From positions 1 to 34,665 of IMG/VR virus record IMGVR_UViG_2698536302_000011: a stretch of DNA of 34,665 nucleotides; one strand, written 5' to 3'. The position numbers were made by a program, and so were the translations under genes. The stretch comes from a virus (lineage: Duplodnaviria; Heunggongvirae; Uroviricota; Caudoviricetes). Positions 4,236-17,645 of this stretch are shown here, piece by piece (position 1 is the stretch's first letter; the number at the start of each line of letters is the position of its first letter). A model generated the notes under the pieces. The model saw only the letters and a program-made list of their open reading frames with translations, had not been told where the DNA came from and did not search any database.

Positions 4236-4801
4236 AATTATCTCCATTTTTACAAATGAACTTTGTTGATGCGGTGCCTGGTGCCTCCAGGTGACGTTAA
4301 CCAGTTAACAATTAACGCCGGATACAGAGAACCCACCCATAACACTGTTTTTGGTTTTAACTGTTCCGCGTGCGCTCAGCCGCATTCACCGCATCACAAA
4401 ACTCACTTTAAAAAGGGCGGCAGACCAGTCACGGAGTAAAACTGATACCGCCAAACGTCACCAGAAAATTGATAACAGAGGGCGTTGCAGCGGGGTTGTC
4501 ACTTAAGCGTATGGTCAACCTGACAACCCGGTGTCCTCAACGGGGAAGGAATAACCCCGCCATACTTACCGCCGCGCCATTTCGCGGAGTGCCACAACCG
4601 GAAGCGCACGGTCGACGAAAATTTAACGACAGGCTATCTATGAACCAGCTACCTCGCCGTGCGCTTTCGCGTTATGGTCTGACTTTTCAGGGAAATATCC
4701 TTTCAGTAAACTGTCAGTGCCGGATGCTCACCCGTGTCCGGCGCACGCACTCCACCTCACCCGTGGAGAACTCCTTAATCACCAACCCTCAGGAGGGTGA
4801 A

Positions 4802-5918: not shown

Positions 5919-6557
5919 TTAAATATCTTGTTGAATTTTAAAGCATACGCCCAATACGCAAGATAGATCATCCAGCATAATTGAAGGGTAGCGAGGATTC
6001 GTGGGGACTAAAAGAATATCCGGCCCTTCTATCTCCAGTTTACGAATGACAGGTGTTGTGGTCCCTTTGGGTAAGGCAAGGACAATATTTCCTGGTTGTA
6101 CGGTTCGATCGGGATCAACAAAAACTGTTGAACCATTTGGGATGGAAACTCCCCCACCAGATGTTGACATACTGTCACTCTCTAGAACAACTGCAAAGGT
6201 ATTGGCCGGGATTTCTCCGACAAGCTGCACACAAGAGGTTATTGAGGAATTTTTCATATAATCACTCCAGCTTGCTGCCTGCTGAAGTGATAGTAGCGGA
6301 ACCGTTTTTATCGGCGGTAAAGATAGATCAAGCGAATCACCTGTATTTAACTCTCCTCCATTAAGAAGCCAATTTTCGTTTACTTTCAATATCTTTGCCA
6401 GTGAACTTATGTAACGCGAGGACGGCGCTCCTCCACCGTTCATCCATTGACTTACGGAGCCTTTTGATGCGCCAGTGGCATTGACAAGGTCTTTGCCTTT
6501 CAGGTTTAGCGCATGCATACGTTGGGTTATGCGTTCAGATATTGTTTGCTTGCTCAT
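5919..6557 (-). CDS. CI-like prophage repressor (XRE-type HTH + S24/LexA-like autopeptidase)
   Basis: 212 aa; N-terminal HTH ('LKGKDLVNATGASKGSVSQWMNG'); C-terminal S24 fold with a putative Ser/Lys dyad ('VLESDSMS', 'PVIRKLE'); divergent from a Cro-like gene. Confidence 0.85.
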   Translation of the reverse strand: MSKQTISERITQRMHALNLKGKDLVNATGASKGSVSQWMNGGGAPSSRYISSLAKILKVNENWLLNGGELNTGDSLDLSLPPIKTVPLLSLQQAASWSDYMKNSSITSCVQLVGEIPANTFAVVLESDSMSTSGGGVSIPNGSTVFVDPDRTVQPGNIVLALPKGTTTPVIRKLEIEGPDILLVPTNPRYPSIMLDDLSCVLGVCFKIQQDI

Positions 6558-6648: not shown

Positions 6649-6879
6649 ATGAAAAAATCAGAAGTATTAGGCTATTTTGGCGGAGTTGTTAAAACAGCCG
6701 CAGCTCTAGGAACGTCAAAAACCACAGTCAGCATGTGGGGGGAAGAGGTTCCGTGGAAATGGGCGTTGCTAATTCAGGCAGTCACTGCCGGGGCGCTCAA
6801 ATATGAGTTACACATACCGACGGTTGTCATTCCCGGTTCTGATCATAATCCGCCTTCTAACCAAGGGGGGGATTCATGA
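6649..6879 (+). CDS. Cro-like small HTH regulator (YdaS-like)
   Basis: Small ORF divergent from the repressor; 'GGVVKTAAALGTSKTTVSMW' HTH; ATG at 6649 with GGAG 7 nt upstream (alternative ATG at 6637). Confidence 0.6.
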   Translation: MKKSEVLGYFGGVVKTAAALGTSKTTVSMWGEEVPWKWALLIQAVTAGALKYELHIPTVVIPGSDHNPPSNQGGDS

Positions 6880-7301
6880 AAATCAAGCATGAACACATCC
6901 GCATGGCGATGAATGCCTGGGCGCGTCCTGATGGCGAAAAAGTTCCAGCAGCTGGAATAACCCAGGCTTATTTTGAGTTGGGTATGACGTTCCCAGAACT
7001 GTATGACGACAGCCATCCGGAAGCCCTGGCTCGCAATACCCAGAAAATTTTCCGCTGGATAGAGAAAGACACCCCTGATGCAGTTGAAAAAATTCAGGCG
7101 TTGTTACCAGCGATCGAAAAGGCAATGCCACCTTTGCTGGTGGCCAGAATGCGCAGCCACAGTTCAGCTTATTTTCGGGAGCTGGTGGAGACGCGGGAGC
7201 GACTGGTGAGAGACGCTGATGATTTTGTCGCAGTGGCAATCGCCGGTTTCAATCAGATGAACCGTGGTGGCCCGGCAGGAAATGCTGTGGCAGTGCATTG
7301 A
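6876..7301 (+). CDS. YdaT-like protein (occupies the CII position)
   Basis: 141-aa ORF overlapping the cro-like stop (start/stop coupling); synteny matches the Rac ydaS-ydaT arrangement; family assignment from memory only. Confidence 0.45.
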   Translation: MKIKHEHIRMAMNAWARPDGEKVPAAGITQAYFELGMTFPELYDDSHPEALARNTQKIFRWIEKDTPDAVEKIQALLPAIEKAMPPLLVARMRSHSSAYFRELVETRERLVRDADDFVAVAIAGFNQMNRGGPAGNAVAVH

Positions 7302-7366
7302 GTGATAATAGCCATATCGAATCACTTCCGGCAACTCGTGAGTAAAAAGATTCGGTATCAGAAGAG

Positions 7367-8420
7367 GTGAGTATGGCTAACGCCTGGCTCAGATTATGGC
7401 ATGACATGCCAAATGACCCTAAGTGGCGAACAATTGCCAGGGTGTCAGGGCAGTCAATTGCAACAGTGATGGCAGTGTATATCCACCTCCTGGTGAGCGC
7501 GTCACGAAATGTCACGCGAGGTCACATTGATGTCACGACAGAAGATTTGGCAAGTGCGCTCGACGTGACAGAAGAGGTAATTGATTCAATTTTGCAGACG
7601 ATGCAGGGGCGGGTACTTGATGGTGATTTAATCACTGGATGGGAAAAACGCCAGGTGCTTAAAGAGGACAACGGCAATATTTCGCAAACCGCAAAATCTC
7701 CTGCAGAGCGCAAGAGGGCGCAGCGAGAGAGGGAAAGAAAGCGGGAACAAAATGGCGATTGTCACGGCGCGTCACGAAATGTCACGCACATGTCACGACG
7801 AGTCACGACAGATANAAGAAGATCAAAACACTATGGTCCATGGCGTAAAAAACGCCACGAACCAGGCAGGGGATGTTCAGACCGTCAATCTTGGTCAGCC
7901 AGCAGGCACGACACCGGAAGCCGATTCAGCGTATGCGCTGAAAGCCGATTCGGGCGCTGTGCAGCAGGTGATGACCGCAAGGCCGGAGCAATCACACCAA
8001 CTGCAGCAGCCTGAAGCCGATTCCGCCATTCAGCGGGAAGCCGATCGGGTAGTCCCGGAAAACACCGGGCAGCCTGTGAGACGAGTGGATTATCCGGATG
8101 TGTTCGAACAGGTCTGGCGGGAATACCCGTTGCGTGCTGGGGCAAACCCGAAGAAATCCGCTTTCAGTGCCTGGAAGGCCAGATTACGCGAGGGGGTGTC
8201 ACCAGAGGCCATGCTGGATGGCGTGAGGCGTTACGCAAGATACCTTGCGGCTACCGGGAAAACGGGAACGGAATTTGTTCAGCGAGCGACGACGTTTTTT
8301 GGGCCGGACCGGAATTTTGAAAACCCCTGGTTGCTCCCGGTAAGCGGCACGAACAACCAGCGTTGTGTGAATCATATTTCTGAACCGGATACCGAAATTC
8401 CACCGGGCTTCAGGGGGTAA
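7367..8420 (+). CDS. Replication-initiator-like protein (O-like / YdaU-type) with internal iterons; apparent frameshift at ambiguous base 7815
   Basis: Two overlapping track ORFs (7367-8014 and 7752-8420) in different frames; the frame switch coincides with the N at 7815 right after the second GTCACG cluster; gene sits in the replication position downstream of the cro/CII-like genes. Confidence 0.5.
7497..7544. repeat. Iteron cluster 1: four GTCAC(G/A) repeats at ~10-11 bp spacing
   Basis: gtcacg at ~7501, 7511, 7532 and gtcaca at ~7521; 18-mer cgtcacgaaatgtcacgc shared with cluster 2. Confidence 0.6.
7761..7808. repeat. Iteron cluster 2: five GTCACG repeats at ~10-11 bp spacing
   Basis: gtcacg at ~7761, 7771, 7781, 7792, 7802; followed by the ambiguous base at 7815. 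Confidence 0.6.
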
Positions 8421-8460
8421 GTGTTGATTTCTGGTCATGAGGTAATTTTCAGGAGGACTT

Positions 8461-8883
8461 GTGGCAAAAGTTTTTACACAAGAAGAGCGGGAAAAAATTA
8501 AAGGGCAGGTTGTTGAACTCGTACGCCAGAGTGGGCGCGAGACGTTACGACAACTGGAAACTAAAACTGGGGCAACAAGATATCTGATGAGCGTTCTGGC
8601 CAGAGAGCTGGTTGCCAGTGGCGATGTATACAACTCTGGTTACGGGTTATTCCCGTCTGAACAGGCGCGTAAGGACTGGCAAAATGCCCGTAAAAAGCTC
8701 TCAAGGGCAAAGCTGAAGAAACCATCTGCGGTTGATCCGGACCTTATCTGGTCATTACCTGACGGAGAAATACGTCGCTACGACAGGCGTCAGAACATAA
8801 TCTGTCGCGAGTGCCGGAAGAGTGAGGTTATGCAGCGAGTGCTGGCGTTTTATCAGGGTAATTTTCAGGAGGTGATGGCGTGA
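8461..8883 (+). CDS. Hypothetical protein (replication/nin-region position)
   Basis: 140 aa; GTG start preceded by AGGAGG; C-terminal CxxC-like 'CRECRK'; no confident family. Confidence 0.45.
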   Translation: MAKVFTQEEREKIKGQVVELVRQSGRETLRQLETKTGATRYLMSVLARELVASGDVYNSGYGLFPSEQARKDWQNARKKLSRAKLKKPSAVDPDLIWSLPDGEIRRYDRRQNIICRECRKSEVMQRVLAFYQGNFQEVMA

Positions 8884-9176
8884 GAGTGAGAGTCTATATC
8901 GCCGGTCCAATGACCGGGTATAAAAATTTCAACCGTGAGGCGTTTCACAATGCGGAAGAGGAACTGAAACGGGAAGGGCATACCGTTTTAAATCCGGCTG
9001 TGCTTCCGGATGGGCTGACACAGCCGCACTACATGGATATTTGCATGGCAATGATTCGTTGTGTGGATGCGATTTACATGCTGAAAGGCTGGCAGCGGTC
9101 AGCAGGTGCTAAGGCAGAACTGGCGCTGGCGGAGAAACTGGGGCATGCAGTTATTTTCCAGGAGGAGGTACAGTGA
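8880..9176 (+). CDS. DUF4406 / nucleoside 2-deoxyribosyltransferase-like fold protein
   Basis: 98 aa; N-terminal 'VYIAGPMTG...NFN' signature typical of that fold; GTG start after AGGAGG, overlapping the upstream stop. Confidence 0.5.
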   Translation: MRVRVYIAGPMTGYKNFNREAFHNAEEELKREGHTVLNPAVLPDGLTQPHYMDICMAMIRCVDAIYMLKGWQRSAGAKAELALAEKLGHAVIFQEEVQ

Positions 9177-11502: not shown

Positions 11503-11950
11503 TGCAAAAATTTCCTGTAAAAAATAATTACATACTTAAGATACTACAAAGAATAATGCGTACGCAAAATTTTTTGTTGAGTAGAATATGTTCGCGGGGT
11601 ATTTTTCGTTAAGATATAATTACCATGGTAACTTTTGCGTTGGTAATGCATTATGTGGTGGAGAAAAAGAGAGAGTCTTATCTTTAAATTATCGCCAGCC
11701 TATATGACTATATGAGTAGTATTTAGATGGGAAATTGTTGAGTTATTGAAAGGAACCATAACCTTTATGTAAAATTACTGCGGGTGCTTGAGGTTATCTG
11801 TCTCAGGCATGCCACCAAAAGGCAGATAGAGAAAAGCCCCAGTTAACGTTACGCGTCCTGCAAGACGTTTAACATTAATCTGAGGCTCAATCTATGAACG
11901 GCAAATCTAGGTTAGCCTCTTACGTGCCGAAAGGCAAGGAGAAGCAGGCT

Positions 11951-12106
11951 ATGAAGCAGCAAAAGGCGATGTTAATCGCCCTGATCGTCATCTGTTTAAC
12001 CGTCATAGTGACGGCACTGGTAACGAGGAAAGACCTCTGCGAGGTACGAATCCGAACCGGCCAGACGGAGGTCGCTGTCTTCACAGCTTACGAACCTGAG
12101 GAGTAA
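11951..12106 (+). CDS. hok: Hok/Gef-family type I toxin
   Basis: 51 aa 'MKQQKAMLIALIVICLTVIVTALVTRKDLCEVRIRTGQTEVAVFTAYEPEE' aligns to Hok ('...[25 protein letters not shown]'); the track ORF extends in frame upstream to 11894 (possible mok-like leader). Confidence 0.85.
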   Translation: MKQQKAMLIALIVICLTVIVTALVTRKDLCEVRIRTGQTEVAVFTAYEPEE

Positions 12107-14658: not shown

Positions 14659-15169
14659 GCGCTGGTGGTTGCGAATGCCGGTCTTTCAGCTTGCTGGCTT
14701 TTTCGACAAGAGGTATTGGTATGTCACGTTAACCGGAAAAGGGAAAAAGGCATGCTAAAACAGCAGGATATGACCGAAACCGCCAGAGTGGTGTTTAATG
14801 AATTAAGCATCACCGAACCGGCGACCGTCGGGGAAATTGCGCAGAATACTTACCTTTCACGCGAACGCTGCCAGTTAATACTGACTCAGCTTGTTATGGC
14901 GGGTCTGGCAGATTATCAGTTCGGTTGTTACAGACGCCTTCCGCAGTGAAGGCTTTTTAATTTGTGGTAATGGGCGGCTGGTGGGTGTTAGCGGCACCTG
15001 CCAGCCATCTGCTCATGCGTTGGGGTCACAAGCAAACCTCAGGCCCATCTGCTTTGCGCAAAAGCGGTATGAGCCTATCAGAGAAGTGCTTATTGATCTA
15101 TGATTAATACTGTAAAAATATCCAGTTGTGAGTTAATCAACGCTGATTGCCTGGAGTTTATCCAGACCT
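14659..15169 (+). repeat. Direct repeat unit A (small ORF + 5' end of the methyltransferase gene)
   Basis: Near-identical to 15722-16232 (period ~1063 bp); ends at the ambiguous base 15170; its methyltransferase-start sequence is identical to that at 16297 onward. Confidence 0.7.
14752..14949 (+). CDS. Small winged-helix-like protein (repeat copy 1)
   Basis: 65 aa 'MLKQQDMTETARVVFNELSITEPATVGEIAQNTYLSRERCQLILTQLVMAGLADY...'; near-identical copy at 15814-16011. Confidence 0.45.
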   Translation: MLKQQDMTETARVVFNELSITEPATVGEIAQNTYLSRERCQLILTQLVMAGLADYQFGCYRRLPQ

Positions 15170-15170
15170 N

Positions 15171-15589
15171 TCCAGTATCCGGATGGTAAGCCGCCGGTAT
15201 GGGCAAAGTGTACGAAAGGTGTGTATCCGTCTTACTGGGAAGAATGGAAAAAAGTCAGGGAGGTGGTAAAAGTTGCCTGTCCGGAGTGTGGCGGAAAGGG
15301 TGAGGTTTCCACCGCCTGTAAGGATTGCCGTGGGCGTGGTGTCGCCATTCATCGTGAAGAGTCGGTAAAACGTGGTATGCCTGTTATCAGAGACTGCCAG
15401 CGTTGTGGTGGTCGTGGCTATGAAAGACTACCATCAACGGAGGCATTTAATGCTATATGCGAGGTGACAAACCAGATAACACGCGCGTCATGGGAAAAAA
15501 CAGTTAAGAAATTTTATGATGCGCTGGTGACCCGGTTTGATATTGAAGAAGCATGGGCTGAGCGGCAGTTAAAAAAGGTAACTAGGTAA
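15171..15589 (+). pseudogene. Lambda-Q-type antiterminator, C-terminal part only (5' truncated at the N junction)
   Basis: 'CPECGGKGE...CKDCRGRGVA...CQRCGGRGYERLPSTEAFNAICEVTNQITRASWEKTVKKFYDALV' aligns to the C-terminal half of lambda Q; the reading frame is open back to the N at 15170 where unrelated sequence begins; no N-terminal half is present. Confidence 0.55.
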
Positions 15590-15669
15590 CAAGGTTGATT
15601 TTTCCGGAATCTGTGGTAAATTCGTCATAACGATGGGCGTTTTATGCCTGACGTTAGAAGAGTTTCTAC

Positions 15670-15694
15670 AACCCGCCGCCGAGCGGGTTTTTTA
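15670..15694 (+). terminator. Rho-independent terminator
   Basis: ACCCGCCGCCGAGCGGGT hairpin followed by a T run. Confidence 0.55.
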
Positions 15695-15721
15695 TGACTG
15701 AAATCGCGTCAGTACAGTAAA

Positions 15722-16261
15722 CGCGCTGGTGGCGGTGAATACCTGTCTTTCAGCTTGCTGGCTTTTTCGACAAGAGTTATTGGTGTGTCACGTTAACCGG
15801 AAAAGGAAAAGACATGCTAAAACAGCAGGATATGACAGAAACCGCCAGAGTGGTGTTTAATGAATTAAGCGTTACCGAACCGGCGACAGTCGGGGAGATA
15901 GCGCAGAATACTTACCTTTCACGCGAACGCTGCCAGTTAATACTGACTCAGCTTGTTATGGCGGGTCTGGCAGATTATCAGTTCGGTTGTTACAGACGCC
16001 TTCCGCAGTGAAGGCTTTTTAATTTGTGGTAATGGGCGGCTGGTGGGTGTTAGCGGCACCTGCCAGCCATCTGCTCATGCGTTGGGGTCACAAGCAAACC
16101 TCAGGCCCATCTGCTTTGCGCAAAAGCGGTATGAGCCTATCAGAGAAGTGCTTATTGATCTATGATTAATACTGTAAAAATATCCAGTTGTGAGTTAATC
16201 AACGCCGACTGCCTGGAATTTATCCGGTCGTTACCCGAAAATTCTGTTGACCTGATAGTCA
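15722..16261 (+). repeat. Direct repeat unit B (variant paralogous copy), running into the N gap
   Basis: Same unit as 14659-15169 with scattered substitutions; its methyltransferase 5' end differs at several positions from the copy at 16297. Confidence 0.7.
15814..16011 (+). CDS. Small winged-helix-like protein (repeat copy 2)
   Basis: 65 aa; differs from copy 1 by I->V in 'NELSVTEP'. Confidence 0.4.
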   Translation: MLKQQDMTETARVVFNELSVTEPATVGEIAQNTYLSRERCQLILTQLVMAGLADYQFGCYRRLPQ

Positions 16262-16287
16262 NNNNNNNNNNNNNNNNNNNNNNNNNN
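16262..16287. other. Assembly gap (run of 26 N)
   Basis: Contiguous n characters; the flanks overlap redundantly, both containing the methyltransferase 5' end. Confidence 0.95.
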
Positions 16288-16296
16288 TAATGATCC

Positions 16297-17346
16297 ATGC
16301 TTAATACTGTAAAAATATCCAGTTGTGAGTTAATCAACGCTGATTGCCTGGAGTTTATCCAGACCTTACCGGAAAACTCTGTCGATCTGATAGTCACAGA
16401 CCCGCCATACTTTAAAGTGAAGCCCGAGGGCTGGGATAACCAGTGGGAGGGCGACGATGATTACCTGAAATGGCTGGACCAGTGTCTGGCGCAGTTCTGG
16501 CGGGTACTGAAGCCTGCCGGAAGTCTTTACCTGTTCTGTGGTCATCGCCTGGCATCTGACACCGAAATCATGATGCGTGAGCGCTTTAATGTGCTGAACC
16601 ACATTATCTGGGCGAAGCCGTCCGGACGCTGGAACGGGTGCAATAAGGAAAGTCTGCGGGCGTATTTTCCGGCAACAGAGCGCATTCTGTTTGCAGAACA
16701 TTATCAGGGACCGTATCGCCCGAAAGATGATGGCTATGTGGAGCAGGGGCGCGAGCTAAAACAGCACGTCATGGCCCCGCTGATTTCTTACTTTCGTGAT
16801 GCGCGTAAATCACTGGGAATAACGTCAAAACAGATAGCGGAAGCCACCGGAAAGAAAAACATGGCTTCGCACTGGTTTGGTGCCAGTCAGTGGCAGTTAC
16901 CGAACGAGGGTGATTACAATAAATTGCAGGCGTTGTTTGCGCGTGTTGCGGCAGAAAAACATCAGCGCGGGGAACTGGAAAAGCCACACCACCAGCTGGT
17001 CAGCACATACAGTGAGCTGAACCGGCAGTATACGGAACTGCTGAGTGAATATAAAAATTTGCGGCGGTATTTCGGTGTGACGGCGCAGGTTCCGTACACC
17101 GATGTCTGGACGCATAAACCGGTGCAGTACTATCCAGGGAAACATCCGTGCGAAAAACCGGCAGAAATGCTGCAGCAGATAATCAACGCGAGCAGTCGTC
17201 CGGGAGACCTGGTTGCAGATTTTTTTATGGGTTCAGGTTCAACGGTAAAAGCGGCGATGGCACTGGGGCGTTGTGCGATTGGTGTTGAGCTGGAGACCGG
17301 ACGTTTTGAACAGACAGTCAGGGAAGTTCAGGATTTAATCGTTTGA
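16297..17346 (+). CDS. DNA N6-adenine/N4-cytosine methyltransferase (beta-class; DPPY before FxGxG)
   Basis: 349 aa; motif IV 'DLIVTDPPY' near the N-terminus and motif I 'DFFMGSGST' near the C-terminus. Confidence 0.85.
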   Translation: MLNTVKISSCELINADCLEFIQTLPENSVDLIVTDPPYFKVKPEGWDNQWEGDDDYLKWLDQCLAQFWRVLKPAGSLYLFCGHRLASDTEIMMRERFNVLNHIIWAKPSGRWNGCNKESLRAYFPATERILFAEHYQGPYRPKDDGYVEQGRELKQHVMAPLISYFRDARKSLGITSKQIAEATGKKNMASHWFGASQWQLPNEGDYNKLQALFARVAAEKHQRGELEKPHHQLVSTYSELNRQYTELLSEYKNLRRYFGVTAQVPYTDVWTHKPVQYYPGKHPCEKPAEMLQQIINASSRPGDLVADFFMGSGSTVKAAMALGRCAIGVELETGRFEQTVREVQDLIV

Positions 17347-17395: not shown

Positions 17396-17471
17396 GGCCC
17401 TTTAGCTCAGTGGTGAGAGCGAGCGACTCATAATCGCCAGGTCGCTGGTTCAAATCCAGCAAGGGCCACCA
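17396..17471 (+). tRNA. tRNA with CAU anticodon (Met or lysidine-modified Ile2)
   Basis: Cloverleaf folded by hand: acceptor GGCCCTT/AAGGGCC, D-arm GCTC...GAGC, anticodon loop CTCATAA, T-arm GCTGG-TTCAAAT-CCAGC, encoded CCA. Confidence 0.85.
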
Positions 17472-17478
17472 TCACATA

Positions 17479-17555
17479 CCGCCATTAGCTCATCAGGATA
17501 GAGCGCCAGCCTTCGAAGCTGGTTGCGCGGGGTTCGAGTCCTCGATGGCGGTCCA
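17479..17555 (+). tRNA. tRNA-Arg (anticodon UCG)
   Basis: Acceptor CCGCCAT/ATGGCGG, anticodon loop CTTCGAA, T-loop TTCGAGT, encoded CCA. Confidence 0.85.
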
Positions 17556-17568
17556 TTATCTGTACCCT

Positions 17569-17645
17569 GCGTTGTTAGCTCAGCCGGACAGAGCAATTGC
17601 CTTCTAAGCAATCGGTCACTGGTTCGAATCCAGTACAACGCGCCA
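17569..17645 (+). tRNA. tRNA-Arg (anticodon UCU)
   Basis: Acceptor GCGTTGT/ACAACGC, anticodon loop CTTCTAA, T-loop TTCGAAT, encoded CCA. Confidence 0.85.

Follow-up and report, generated by a model that had tools for sequence, protein, structure and literature searches.

An initiator gene with two repeat arrays

The DNA analysed here, called the window throughout, comprises 34,665 nucleotides (nt) from a member of the Caudoviricetes (positions 1 to 34,665 of IMG/VR record IMGVR_UViG_2698536302_000011). Its gene at 7373-8420 on the plus strand appears to encode a phage replication initiator, and two clusters of the short repeat GTCAC(G/A) lie within this gene, followed by a single ambiguous base (N). 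A sequence-only reading had taken the repeats for the iterons of a replication origin inside a gene resembling lambda O, and had offered either a frameshifted pseudogene or a sequencing error at a repeat as the meaning of the N. The elements at the locus are listed below, with open reading frame abbreviated as ORF.

7373..7814, plus strand: 5' part of the initiator gene, codons 1-147 (winged-helix N-domain, basic helix, start of the linker)
7497..7540, plus strand: iteron cluster 1, four direct GTCAC(G/A) copies, encoding the loop/S1 segment (residues 44-56) of the predicted winged helix
7564..7569, minus strand: inverted iteron core CGTGAC, 27 nt past the end of cluster 1
7761..7807, plus strand: iteron cluster 2, made up of five direct GTCACG copies within the linker-coding sequence, the proposed origin-proximal array
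7808..7833, plus strand: remnant of a purine-rich, AT-rich tract, the proposed DNA unwinding element (DUE), mostly missing from the window
7815..7815, no strand: single N, the cause of the apparent frame switch, which appears to stand for 12-48 nt of a 12-nt tandem repeat
7818..8420, plus strand: 3' part of the initiator gene, which encodes the C-terminal domain and follows the frame of ORF 7752-8420

The GTCAC cores start at 7501, 7511, 7521 and 7532 in cluster 1 and at 7761, 7771, 7781, 7792 and 7802 in cluster 2, with start-to-start spacings of 10, 10 and 11 nt and of 10, 10, 11 and 10 nt, respectively. A motif scan thus recovered all the positions and spacings that had been reported for the nine direct copies, eight of which are GTCACG and one GTCACA (at 7521). 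It also found a tenth GTCACG copy that had escaped the earlier list, in inverted orientation (CGTGAC on the plus strand, 7564-7569). The two clusters do share sequence beyond the core, as had been stated, but the longest exact repeat common to both is 21 nt (GCGCGTCACGAAATGTCACGC, at 7497 and 7767) and not 18 nt. The repeat unit has a period of 10-11 nt, a core of 6-8 nt and no internal dyad, and the clusters lie ~260 nt apart. All ten copies, nine direct and one inverted, fall inside the gene and represent putative initiator-binding sites.

Over the whole window, GTCACG shows no overall enrichment (19 matches versus 14.3 expected); nine of the 19 are packed into 307 nt. The densest 320-nt stretch of the window is the one described here, with 10 copies against a window mean of 0.68, and no other stretch is comparable. 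DnaA boxes were absent from 7300-8460, and their count over the whole window was at chance level.

Conservation of the repeats at the DNA level

Depending on the copy, the G of the motif is the first, second or third base of its codon, so that the same hexamer specifies different peptides. Because the motif is read in all three codon phases, it produces no amino acid repeat. The number of copies was compared with that in shuffles exchanging synonymous codons only, which preserve both the protein sequence and the codon usage. The intact homologous ORF contains 10 GTCAC, while the shuffles contain 3.28 +/- 1.40, and none of 20,000 shuffles reached 10; the frequency is thus about three times that of the synonymous shuffles.

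This enrichment was accompanied by constraint at synonymous sites, as seen in four taxa of ~70% protein identity and differing base composition (E. coli, Aeromonas, P. aeruginosa and a metagenomic phage). Among codons for conserved amino acids, the third base was identical in 7/7 cases when it fell inside a GTCAC/GTGAC core, compared with 9/52 elsewhere in the domain (Fisher P = 3e-5). The inverted copy is part of this pattern: GTGAC is kept in the E. coli, Aeromonas, P. aeruginosa and metagenomic relatives, and its valine codon GTG, identical in all four, is one of the seven. Together, these comparisons show that the repeats behave as DNA-level signals under purifying selection, and the peptide segments that they encode should not be taken as protein motifs.

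The enrichment with the protein held fixed, the invariant synonymous positions of the core, and a 10-11 nt period that is no multiple of 3 all speak against a requirement at the level of the protein, for repeated VT, SR or CH motifs or a metal site, and equally against low-complexity drift devoid of any DNA function. So do the three reading frames and the joint change of motif in both clusters of other lineages described below. What favours such an explanation is the loop encoded by cluster 1 (SRNVTRGH..VT), which is very well conserved in 113 cluster representatives and carries an invariant Arg-Gly. Set against the behaviour of the DNA, we regard it as extremely improbable.

Layout and motif across the family

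The two-cluster arrangement is found well beyond the window. A class-B (CGAACGC) protein query retrieved 57 distinct IMG/VR loci. The commonest hexamer formed both clusters in 53 of them, at nt 100-215 and 290-480 of the gene, and in 49 of the 57 the two-cluster hexamer exceeded synonymous shuffles at P <= 0.01. Among loci inspected by hand, 11 of 13 showed the layout, at protein identities as low as 37%. Divergent members of the N-domain family retain the 10-11 nt spacing, with cluster 1 at gene nt 122-183 and cluster 2 at about nt 330-450. The motif itself varies by lineage (GTCACG, CGAACGC, GTAACGC, GCAACG), yet it is the same in both clusters of each gene. Representative members and their copy numbers (cluster 1 + cluster 2) are as follows.

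Aeromonas phage pAEv1818: GTCAC, 4 + 3 copies
P. aeruginosa prophage-like contig L092: GTCACG, 4 + 4 copies
AT-rich metagenomic phage L091: GTCAC, 4 + 4 copies
Metagenomic phage L088: GTAACGCA, 2 + 4 copies
Metagenomic phage L089: GCGAACGC, 3 + 4 copies
Metagenomic phage L090: CGAACGC, 3-4 + 5 copies
Ralstonia phage Firinga (37% identity): GCAACG, 4-5 + 4 copies

Mosaic relatives within E. coli separate the contribution of the two protein domains. In the relative L006, an N-domain 87% identical to that of the window is joined to a DnaT-type C-domain, a true DnaT single-stranded-DNA-binding domain (Pfam PF17948, E = 1e-17), and followed by a lambda-P-like neighbour. This gene carries 6 + 5 GTCAC copies; the two extra iterons of cluster 1 form a 21-nt in-frame insertion, and the protein loop is 7 residues longer. 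The reverse combination occurs in O157-type prophages (L005, L007), which carry the C-domain of the window (93-97% DNA identity) on an unrelated N-domain. They contain no GTCAC and have instead AAGGGGCTT in two clusters, at gene nt 172-199 and 444-466, with ~11 nt spacing and one 16-nt gap. After cluster 2, these genes show a GAACAG tandem (encoding EQEQ) and then the same downstream sequence as the window. Thus, the comparison shows the motif to covary with the N-domain, and not with the C-domain or the neighbouring genes, and both clusters to change in concert.

This covariation bears on whether the sites serve a protein other than the initiator, such as the cII/YdaT-like product, the DUF977 neighbour, the repressor or a host factor. 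Such a role would accommodate the acidic recognition helix of the winged helix (see below), binding by the initiator being a deduction from sequence. The layout, however, follows the N-domain into Pseudomonas, Aeromonas, Ralstonia and metagenomic phages that lack YdaT or DUF977, and the motif changes with the N-domain while the C-domain and the neighbours stay. We therefore consider another binding protein very unlikely.

Comparison of the window with L005, L006 and L007 also revealed a recombination joint at the origin region (window 7826-7833, CACTATGG), where the junction falls in or just after the AT-rich tract. In five metagenomic homologs (P0042, P0060, P0073, P0098 and P0105), an HNH endonuclease domain (PF01844, PF14279) follows the N-domain at about residue 105-120. 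This domain, which replaces the linker and the cluster-2 region, could represent a gene fused to or inserted at the position of the origin.

The N and the apparent frameshift

As the sequence-only reading had noted, the N at 7815 coincides with a switch of reading frame: the program-made ORFs 7367-8014 and 7752-8420 exchange there. The gene of the window is 95.5-97.3% identical to the intact 1071-nt genes of Escherichia phages Tritos, Evi and vB_EcoS-689R5, and 99.2% identical to a 1083-nt gene of E. coli 33F4. The alignment to intact genes is collinear save in one place, in which the N and a 23-column gap lie opposite 24 nt, AAGATACAGATAAAGATACAGATC. These 24 nt are a 12-nt tandem repeat of the unit ACAGATAAAGAT, which encodes DKDT, and both flanks of the N are otherwise ~99% identical to intact genes.

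The length of this repeat is variable. Among 70 relatives it is present in 2 copies (43 loci), 3 copies (14 loci), 4 copies or 6-nt variants, always in frame, and the iteron counts are steady at 4 + 5 in almost all; a one-copy ACAGATAAAGAT allele was also found. Intact relatives thus read ACAGATAAAGAT one to four times and then CAAGAAGATCAAAACACTATGG. In complete genomes, a 161-nt query from the window matches 190-208 nt, corresponding to 30-48 nt at the point of the N. Comparison with intact homologs therefore leaves the window collinear except for an N that faces 24-48 nt, always in frame, and any in-frame repeat allele collapsed to one N would give the frame shift that is observed.

The junction itself, GACAGATA-x-AAGAAGATC with any base at the position of the N, was absent from a collection of species-representative genomes. 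With the N in place (GACAGATA-N-AAGAAGATC), it was seen once in IMG/VR, in the independent contig L099 (IMGVR_UViG_2693429733_000009, 764-801), where the N occupies the same position and the sequence differs from the window at 17 places in 1394 nt. That two non-identical assemblies carry the same placeholder implicates the assembly pipeline and not biology, and the collapse of the ACAGATAAAGAT repeat looks systematic in one such pipeline. Further Ns in the window, at 15170 and 16262-16287, border a stretch in which the 5' end of a DNA methyltransferase gene is present three times (ctgtaaaaatatccagttgtgagttaatcaacg..., copies at ~15110, 16175 and 16302, region 15100-16360). This stretch measures 1901 nt in the window versus ~1398 nt in complete E. 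coli genomes, and the triplication is, judged by that comparison, a scaffolding or gap-filling artefact. The misassembly around these Ns implies that the window derives from a scaffolded draft with junction artefacts.

These observations have to be weighed against a genuine frameshifted pseudogene of a decaying prophage, in which a real deletion of 23 nt (or of 11 or 35 nt) would accompany one ambiguous base. The frame does change at the N, frameshifted or truncated versions of the gene occur in public protein sets, and no helicase loader gene follows the initiator. Yet slippage within a repeat of 6 or 12 nt would delete a multiple of 6, and the 70 relatives and the complete genomes differ in just this manner and in frame; the junction GACAGATA-N-AAGAAGATC fits no deletion of a unit. 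Moreover, the junction with a real base was not found among the species-representative genomes, whereas the N recurs in the non-identical L099, and the remaining Ns of the window belong to a triplicated misassembly while the flanks of this one are ~99% identical to intact genes. The sole disruption of the gene is an N placeholder opposite 24-48 nt of tandem repeat, with no insertion or deletion of called bases. A true pseudogene thus appears quite improbable, if slightly less so than binding by another protein.

We conclude from these alignments that the frameshift arose in assembly, from a scaffold or consensus gap that falls in the tandem repeat and not in the iterons, and that the initiator gene is most likely intact in the organism. 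Of the two alternatives put forward by the sequence-only reading, the error thus stands, as an assembly gap, although the repeat concerned is the ACAGATAAAGAT tract and not the iteron array. A tandem repeat in the proposed unwinding tract would thereby give rise to assembly gaps in this gene and to its false annotation as a 'pseudogene'.

We also considered 'partial' database proteins as a sign of breaks at the tandem repeat. Since the ends of these proteins are scattered and for the most part reflect multi-copy mosaic modules, they were not used as evidence. Separately, five proteins (P0001, P0009, P0015, P0026 and P0030) change frame just before cluster 2, near an A-run in GAACAAAATGG, and their translation across the iterons and the tandem repeat is ...MAIVTARHEMSRTCHDESRQIKIQIKIQIKKIKTLWSMA; they reflect either sequencing errors or real pseudogenes elsewhere.

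The AT-rich tract downstream of cluster 2

In every lineage examined, a purine-rich, AT-rich tract of low complexity directly follows the last iteron of cluster 2. Its forms include (C/T)AGATAAAGA..., GAAGAG repeats and GAACAG repeats, and the charged linker, for instance DKDT, EEEE or EQEQ, is encoded by it as well. In E. coli 33F4 (L004), the tract is 71% A+T and 71% purine on the coding strand, and it contains the least stable 40-mer of the cro-to-DUF977 region (-42.4 kcal/mol versus a mean of -56.1, standard deviation 3.8). The search for an unwinding element downstream of the iterons was thus successful in the intact relatives, while the window alone would have missed the tract, which is hidden by the N. 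A class-B relative (L105, IMGVR_UViG_3300018050_000876) carries 12 tandem ACAGAT units in its AT-rich tract, indicating that the repeat can grow well past the one to four 12-nt units of E. coli.

An imperfect palindrome lies right after the tract.

7834..7864, no strand: imperfect palindrome with 13-bp arms, TGGTCCATGGCGT-AAAAA-ACGCCACGAACCA

It occupies the same position as the palindrome of the lambda origin. As a lambda-ori-like element it was rejected, since hairpins at this place were no better than those of control windows in 13 family members.

The sites could also be bound by the initiator without forming an origin, serving autoregulation, a transcriptional roadblock or copy control by handcuffing, with replication starting elsewhere. 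They lie in the transcribed initiator gene, so that binding could attenuate its own expression, and the two separated clusters recall the control arrays of iteron plasmids (P1 incA/incC, F incB/incC). In addition, TGTCAC, taken as its reverse complement, is similar to a -35 hexamer, and cluster 2 is overlapped by a weak minus-strand promoter-like site. Promoter-like sites, however, were not above chance there (2 versus 0.7 +/- 0.8 in shuffles), and a minus-strand promoter over cluster 2 was rejected. A second GTCAC cluster that might mark a start elsewhere, comparable to oriR of SPP1, was likewise not found in the window: three copies at 4428, 4457 and 4498 show no periodicity, and the DicF RNA gene contains two of these. 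Cluster 2, in contrast, is always directly followed by the least stable, strand-asymmetric AT tract, the signature of iterons plus DUE. The same arrangement is a proven origin in lambda (PMC7466680), SPP1 (PMC5737612) and lactococcal phages (PMC8965321). Binding sites with a purely regulatory role are thus unlikely, though they are the strongest of the alternatives considered.

The initiator protein and its neighbours

Among the PHROG families, the intact protein falls into 3729, 'replication initiation protein' (E = 1e-257), and PGAP names it 'phage replisome organizer'; PHROG replisome-organizer families match more weakly (E = 4e-6 and 2e-4). For the full protein, Pfam returned no family at E <= 0.01, and at E <= 10 only Phage_rep_org_N and a helix-turn-helix family. 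No match to the WH1-WH2 Rep_3 family was obtained in Pfam or NCBIfam. The N-domain taken separately aligns with Phage_rep_org_N (PF09681) at E = 0.016 over profile positions 1-119 of 121, and its structure model is a winged helix close to the N-terminal domain (NTD) of DnaD. In the same model, cluster 2 encodes a low-confidence, disordered part of the protein (residues 129-147). As a statement of homology, the designation 'O-like' therefore does not hold: there is no Pfam Phage_rep_O match, and the protein combines a DnaD-NTD-like winged helix with a sub-threshold resemblance to Phage_rep_org_N. Judged by the sequence and the predicted structure, the initiator is an N-terminal winged helix of the replisome-organizer/DnaD-NTD type with an exchangeable C-terminal domain.

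The last residues of the protein form a tail of a different affinity.

8352..8417, plus strand: C-terminal tail NNQRCVNHISEPDTEIPPGFRG, resembling the last 22 residues of host DnaT

This tail (NNQRCVNHISEPDTEIPPGFRG, ..VNxxSEPDxxIPPGFRG) is identical at 15-16 of 22 positions to the C terminus of DnaT (PDB 6aep, 2ru8 and 9zbt; residues 158-179) and also matches NCBIfam NF002770 at positions 156-179. The rest of the C-domain of the window shows no detectable similarity to DnaT or, by BLASTP, to the DnaT-type C-domain of L006. The DnaT-like tail may mimic a contact of the host primosome.

The gene is common. It was matched in 2530 of 5426 complete E. coli genomes, and the N-domain family comprises 2320 cluster representatives at 50% identity (E <= 1e-3). 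Around it, the gene order is an S24/LexA-type repressor (5919-6557, minus strand), a Cro-like gene, a CII-like/YdaT-family gene (6876-7301), the initiator, DUF977 (Ren-like) and DUF4406, which by its predicted content is a lambdoid immunity and replication module. Relatives with the same C-domain carry a DnaC-like ATPase gene at the position of the loader (L005), and the relative with the DnaT-type C-domain (L006) carries a lambda-P-like gene.

Proposed mechanism of origin function

Taken together, the evidence points to the GTCACG repeats being the replication origin of a lambda-like E. coli prophage, located inside its own initiator gene, and to the N being an assembly gap. We assign this reading a probability of roughly 0.77. 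The notion of origin iterons inside the initiator gene, put forward from the sequence of the window alone, thus finds strong support in the comparative evidence, namely the layout, the synonymous sites and the covariation of motif and lineage. The proposed likeness to the lambda origin is borne out as to the position of the repeats in an initiator gene and not as to the layout, which here consists of two clusters of one-turn repeats ~260 nt apart.

We envisage that monomers of the initiator would bind neighbouring one-turn GTCACG iterons along a single face of the helix, with five putative sites in cluster 2 and four direct and one inverted site in cluster 1. The monomers would then oligomerise on the iterons, possibly bridging the clusters ~260 bp apart, and the oligomer would stress and open the adjacent purine-rich AT tract, the ACAGATAAAGAT repeat that also codes for the DKDT linker. 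Finally, the C-terminal domain would recruit the host helicase machinery. In this scheme, cluster 2 and the AT tract would constitute the origin proper, and cluster 1 would be an auxiliary or control array or a partner in looping. The lack of a loader gene in the window together with the DnaT-like tail suggests the use of host DnaC/DnaB or of the restart primosome. As the recruitment of DnaB/DnaC by DnaT is itself still unknown (PMC13377028), the helicase step is speculative.

Cluster 1 encodes the loop/S1 segment of the winged helix with its invariant Arg-Gly, so that any change in its iterons also rewrites residues of the putative DNA-binding domain. If the iteron-coded loop aids recognition, the site and its reader would evolve as a single unit, and this could explain the clean switches between GTCACG, CGAACGC, GTAACGC and GCAACG in both clusters. 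Outside the loop, the positions that differ between classes (31, 65, 67 and 100-115) are suggestive as determinants of specificity. A more far-reaching proposal would hold that the origin is bipartite in a manner unlike lambda or SPP1, that the loop-coded array ties the site to its reader, and that the DnaT-like tail loads the helicase without a phage loader. As a whole, we regard this extended proposal as unlikely.

Several observations weigh against the origin reading or parts of it. The match of the N-domain to Phage_rep_org_N lies below threshold (15.6 bits versus a cut-off of 23.3), and a Foldseek search gave nothing significant. The putative recognition helix, residues 67-77, is acidic, which makes the DNA-reading element ambiguous, and the residues that distinguish the classes, the iteron-coded loop aside, are concentrated at 100-115. 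Two distant cyanophage members of the family lack significant repeats. Across the family, the clusters are separated by anything from 181 to 271 nt, a variation that rules out a fixed helical phasing between them as a basis for the looping model. No helicase or loader gene follows the initiator (window 8461-9176), this place being taken by DUF977 and DUF4406 (nucleoside 2-deoxyribosyltransferase-like), and a prophage lacking a loader gene could in principle be replication-defective. Last, we infer the binding of the N-domain to GTCACG, the unwinding of the tract and the activity of the origin from sequence comparison.

Comparison with known origins

The principle that origin iterons lie inside the initiator gene is textbook knowledge. 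In lambda and the Shiga toxin (Stx) phages, ori is located in the middle of gene O, and two extra iterons add 13 residues to the O protein of Stx phages (PMC7466680). The candidate origin resembles that of lambda in its placement in the linker between the DNA-binding N-domain and the helicase-recruiting C-domain, and in the order of direct repeats followed by an AT-rich tract. As in lambda and Stx phages, changes in iteron number add residues in frame (13 in Stx O, 7 in L006), and domains are swapped at the origin. On the other hand, the initiator is no homolog of O, as seen from the Pfam search. While lambda has a single cluster of four 19-bp iterons with an internal dyad, the period here is 10-11 nt and there are two clusters, and the upstream one sits within the code for the DNA-binding domain. 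Also unlike lambda, no P-type loader gene follows.

The oriL of SPP1, to which G38P binds, combines AB boxes with a DUE and is located within gene 38 (PMC5737612, PMC6316719). The similarity extends to a replisome organizer with iterons and an AT-rich DUE in its own gene, and G38P also binds a distant second repeat region. The sequence relationship is marginal, however, and SPP1 has its own loader and helicase (G39P, G40P) encoded beside gene 38. Moreover, its second site, oriR, is kilobases away, whereas the second array here is in the same gene. Of the lactococcal P335 phages, Tuc2009 and TP901-1 encode organizers (Rep2009 and ORF13, respectively) that bind direct repeats inside their cognate genes, which act as ori (PMC8965321). 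The location of the repeats inside the organizer gene is a shared trait; these phages differ in having Gram-positive hosts.

Two further systems resemble the locus in part. The tail shares nearly identical last 22 residues with E. coli DnaT (primosomal protein I), but the remainder of the C-domain is unrelated, and DnaT has no sequence-specific origin-binding domain. Iteron plasmids such as P1 (incC/incA) and F (incB/incC) have two arrays, one at an AT-rich region and the other auxiliary. The analogy, and it is an analogy only, lies in two separated arrays of one putative initiator-binding repeat. Unlike here, where both arrays are inside the gene and no Rep_3 match is found, the plasmid initiators are of the Rep_3 WH1-WH2 type and their arrays flank the rep gene.

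A literature search found no paper describing the origin of this initiator family or its bipartite, lineage-specific arrays, and neither iterons nor origins come up in a paper on the non-lambda replication modules of Stx phages. Thus, this family with its bipartite and lineage-specific iteron arrays seems to be previously undescribed. The initiator gene is matched in almost half of the complete E. coli genomes, yet its origin lacks a published description that we could find. The likely cis elements are now defined as two iteron arrays, one inverted copy and an AT-rich variable-number tandem repeat, and they are testable for non-lambda prophage replication modules, including the O157-type relatives L005 and L007, which share the C-domain.

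Other features of the window

Rfam identified a DicF antisense RNA (4415-4466, minus strand), a sok antitoxin RNA (11782-11956, plus strand) and three tRNA genes (17396-17642, plus strand). By these RNAs, the prophage resembles the Qin/DicF type.

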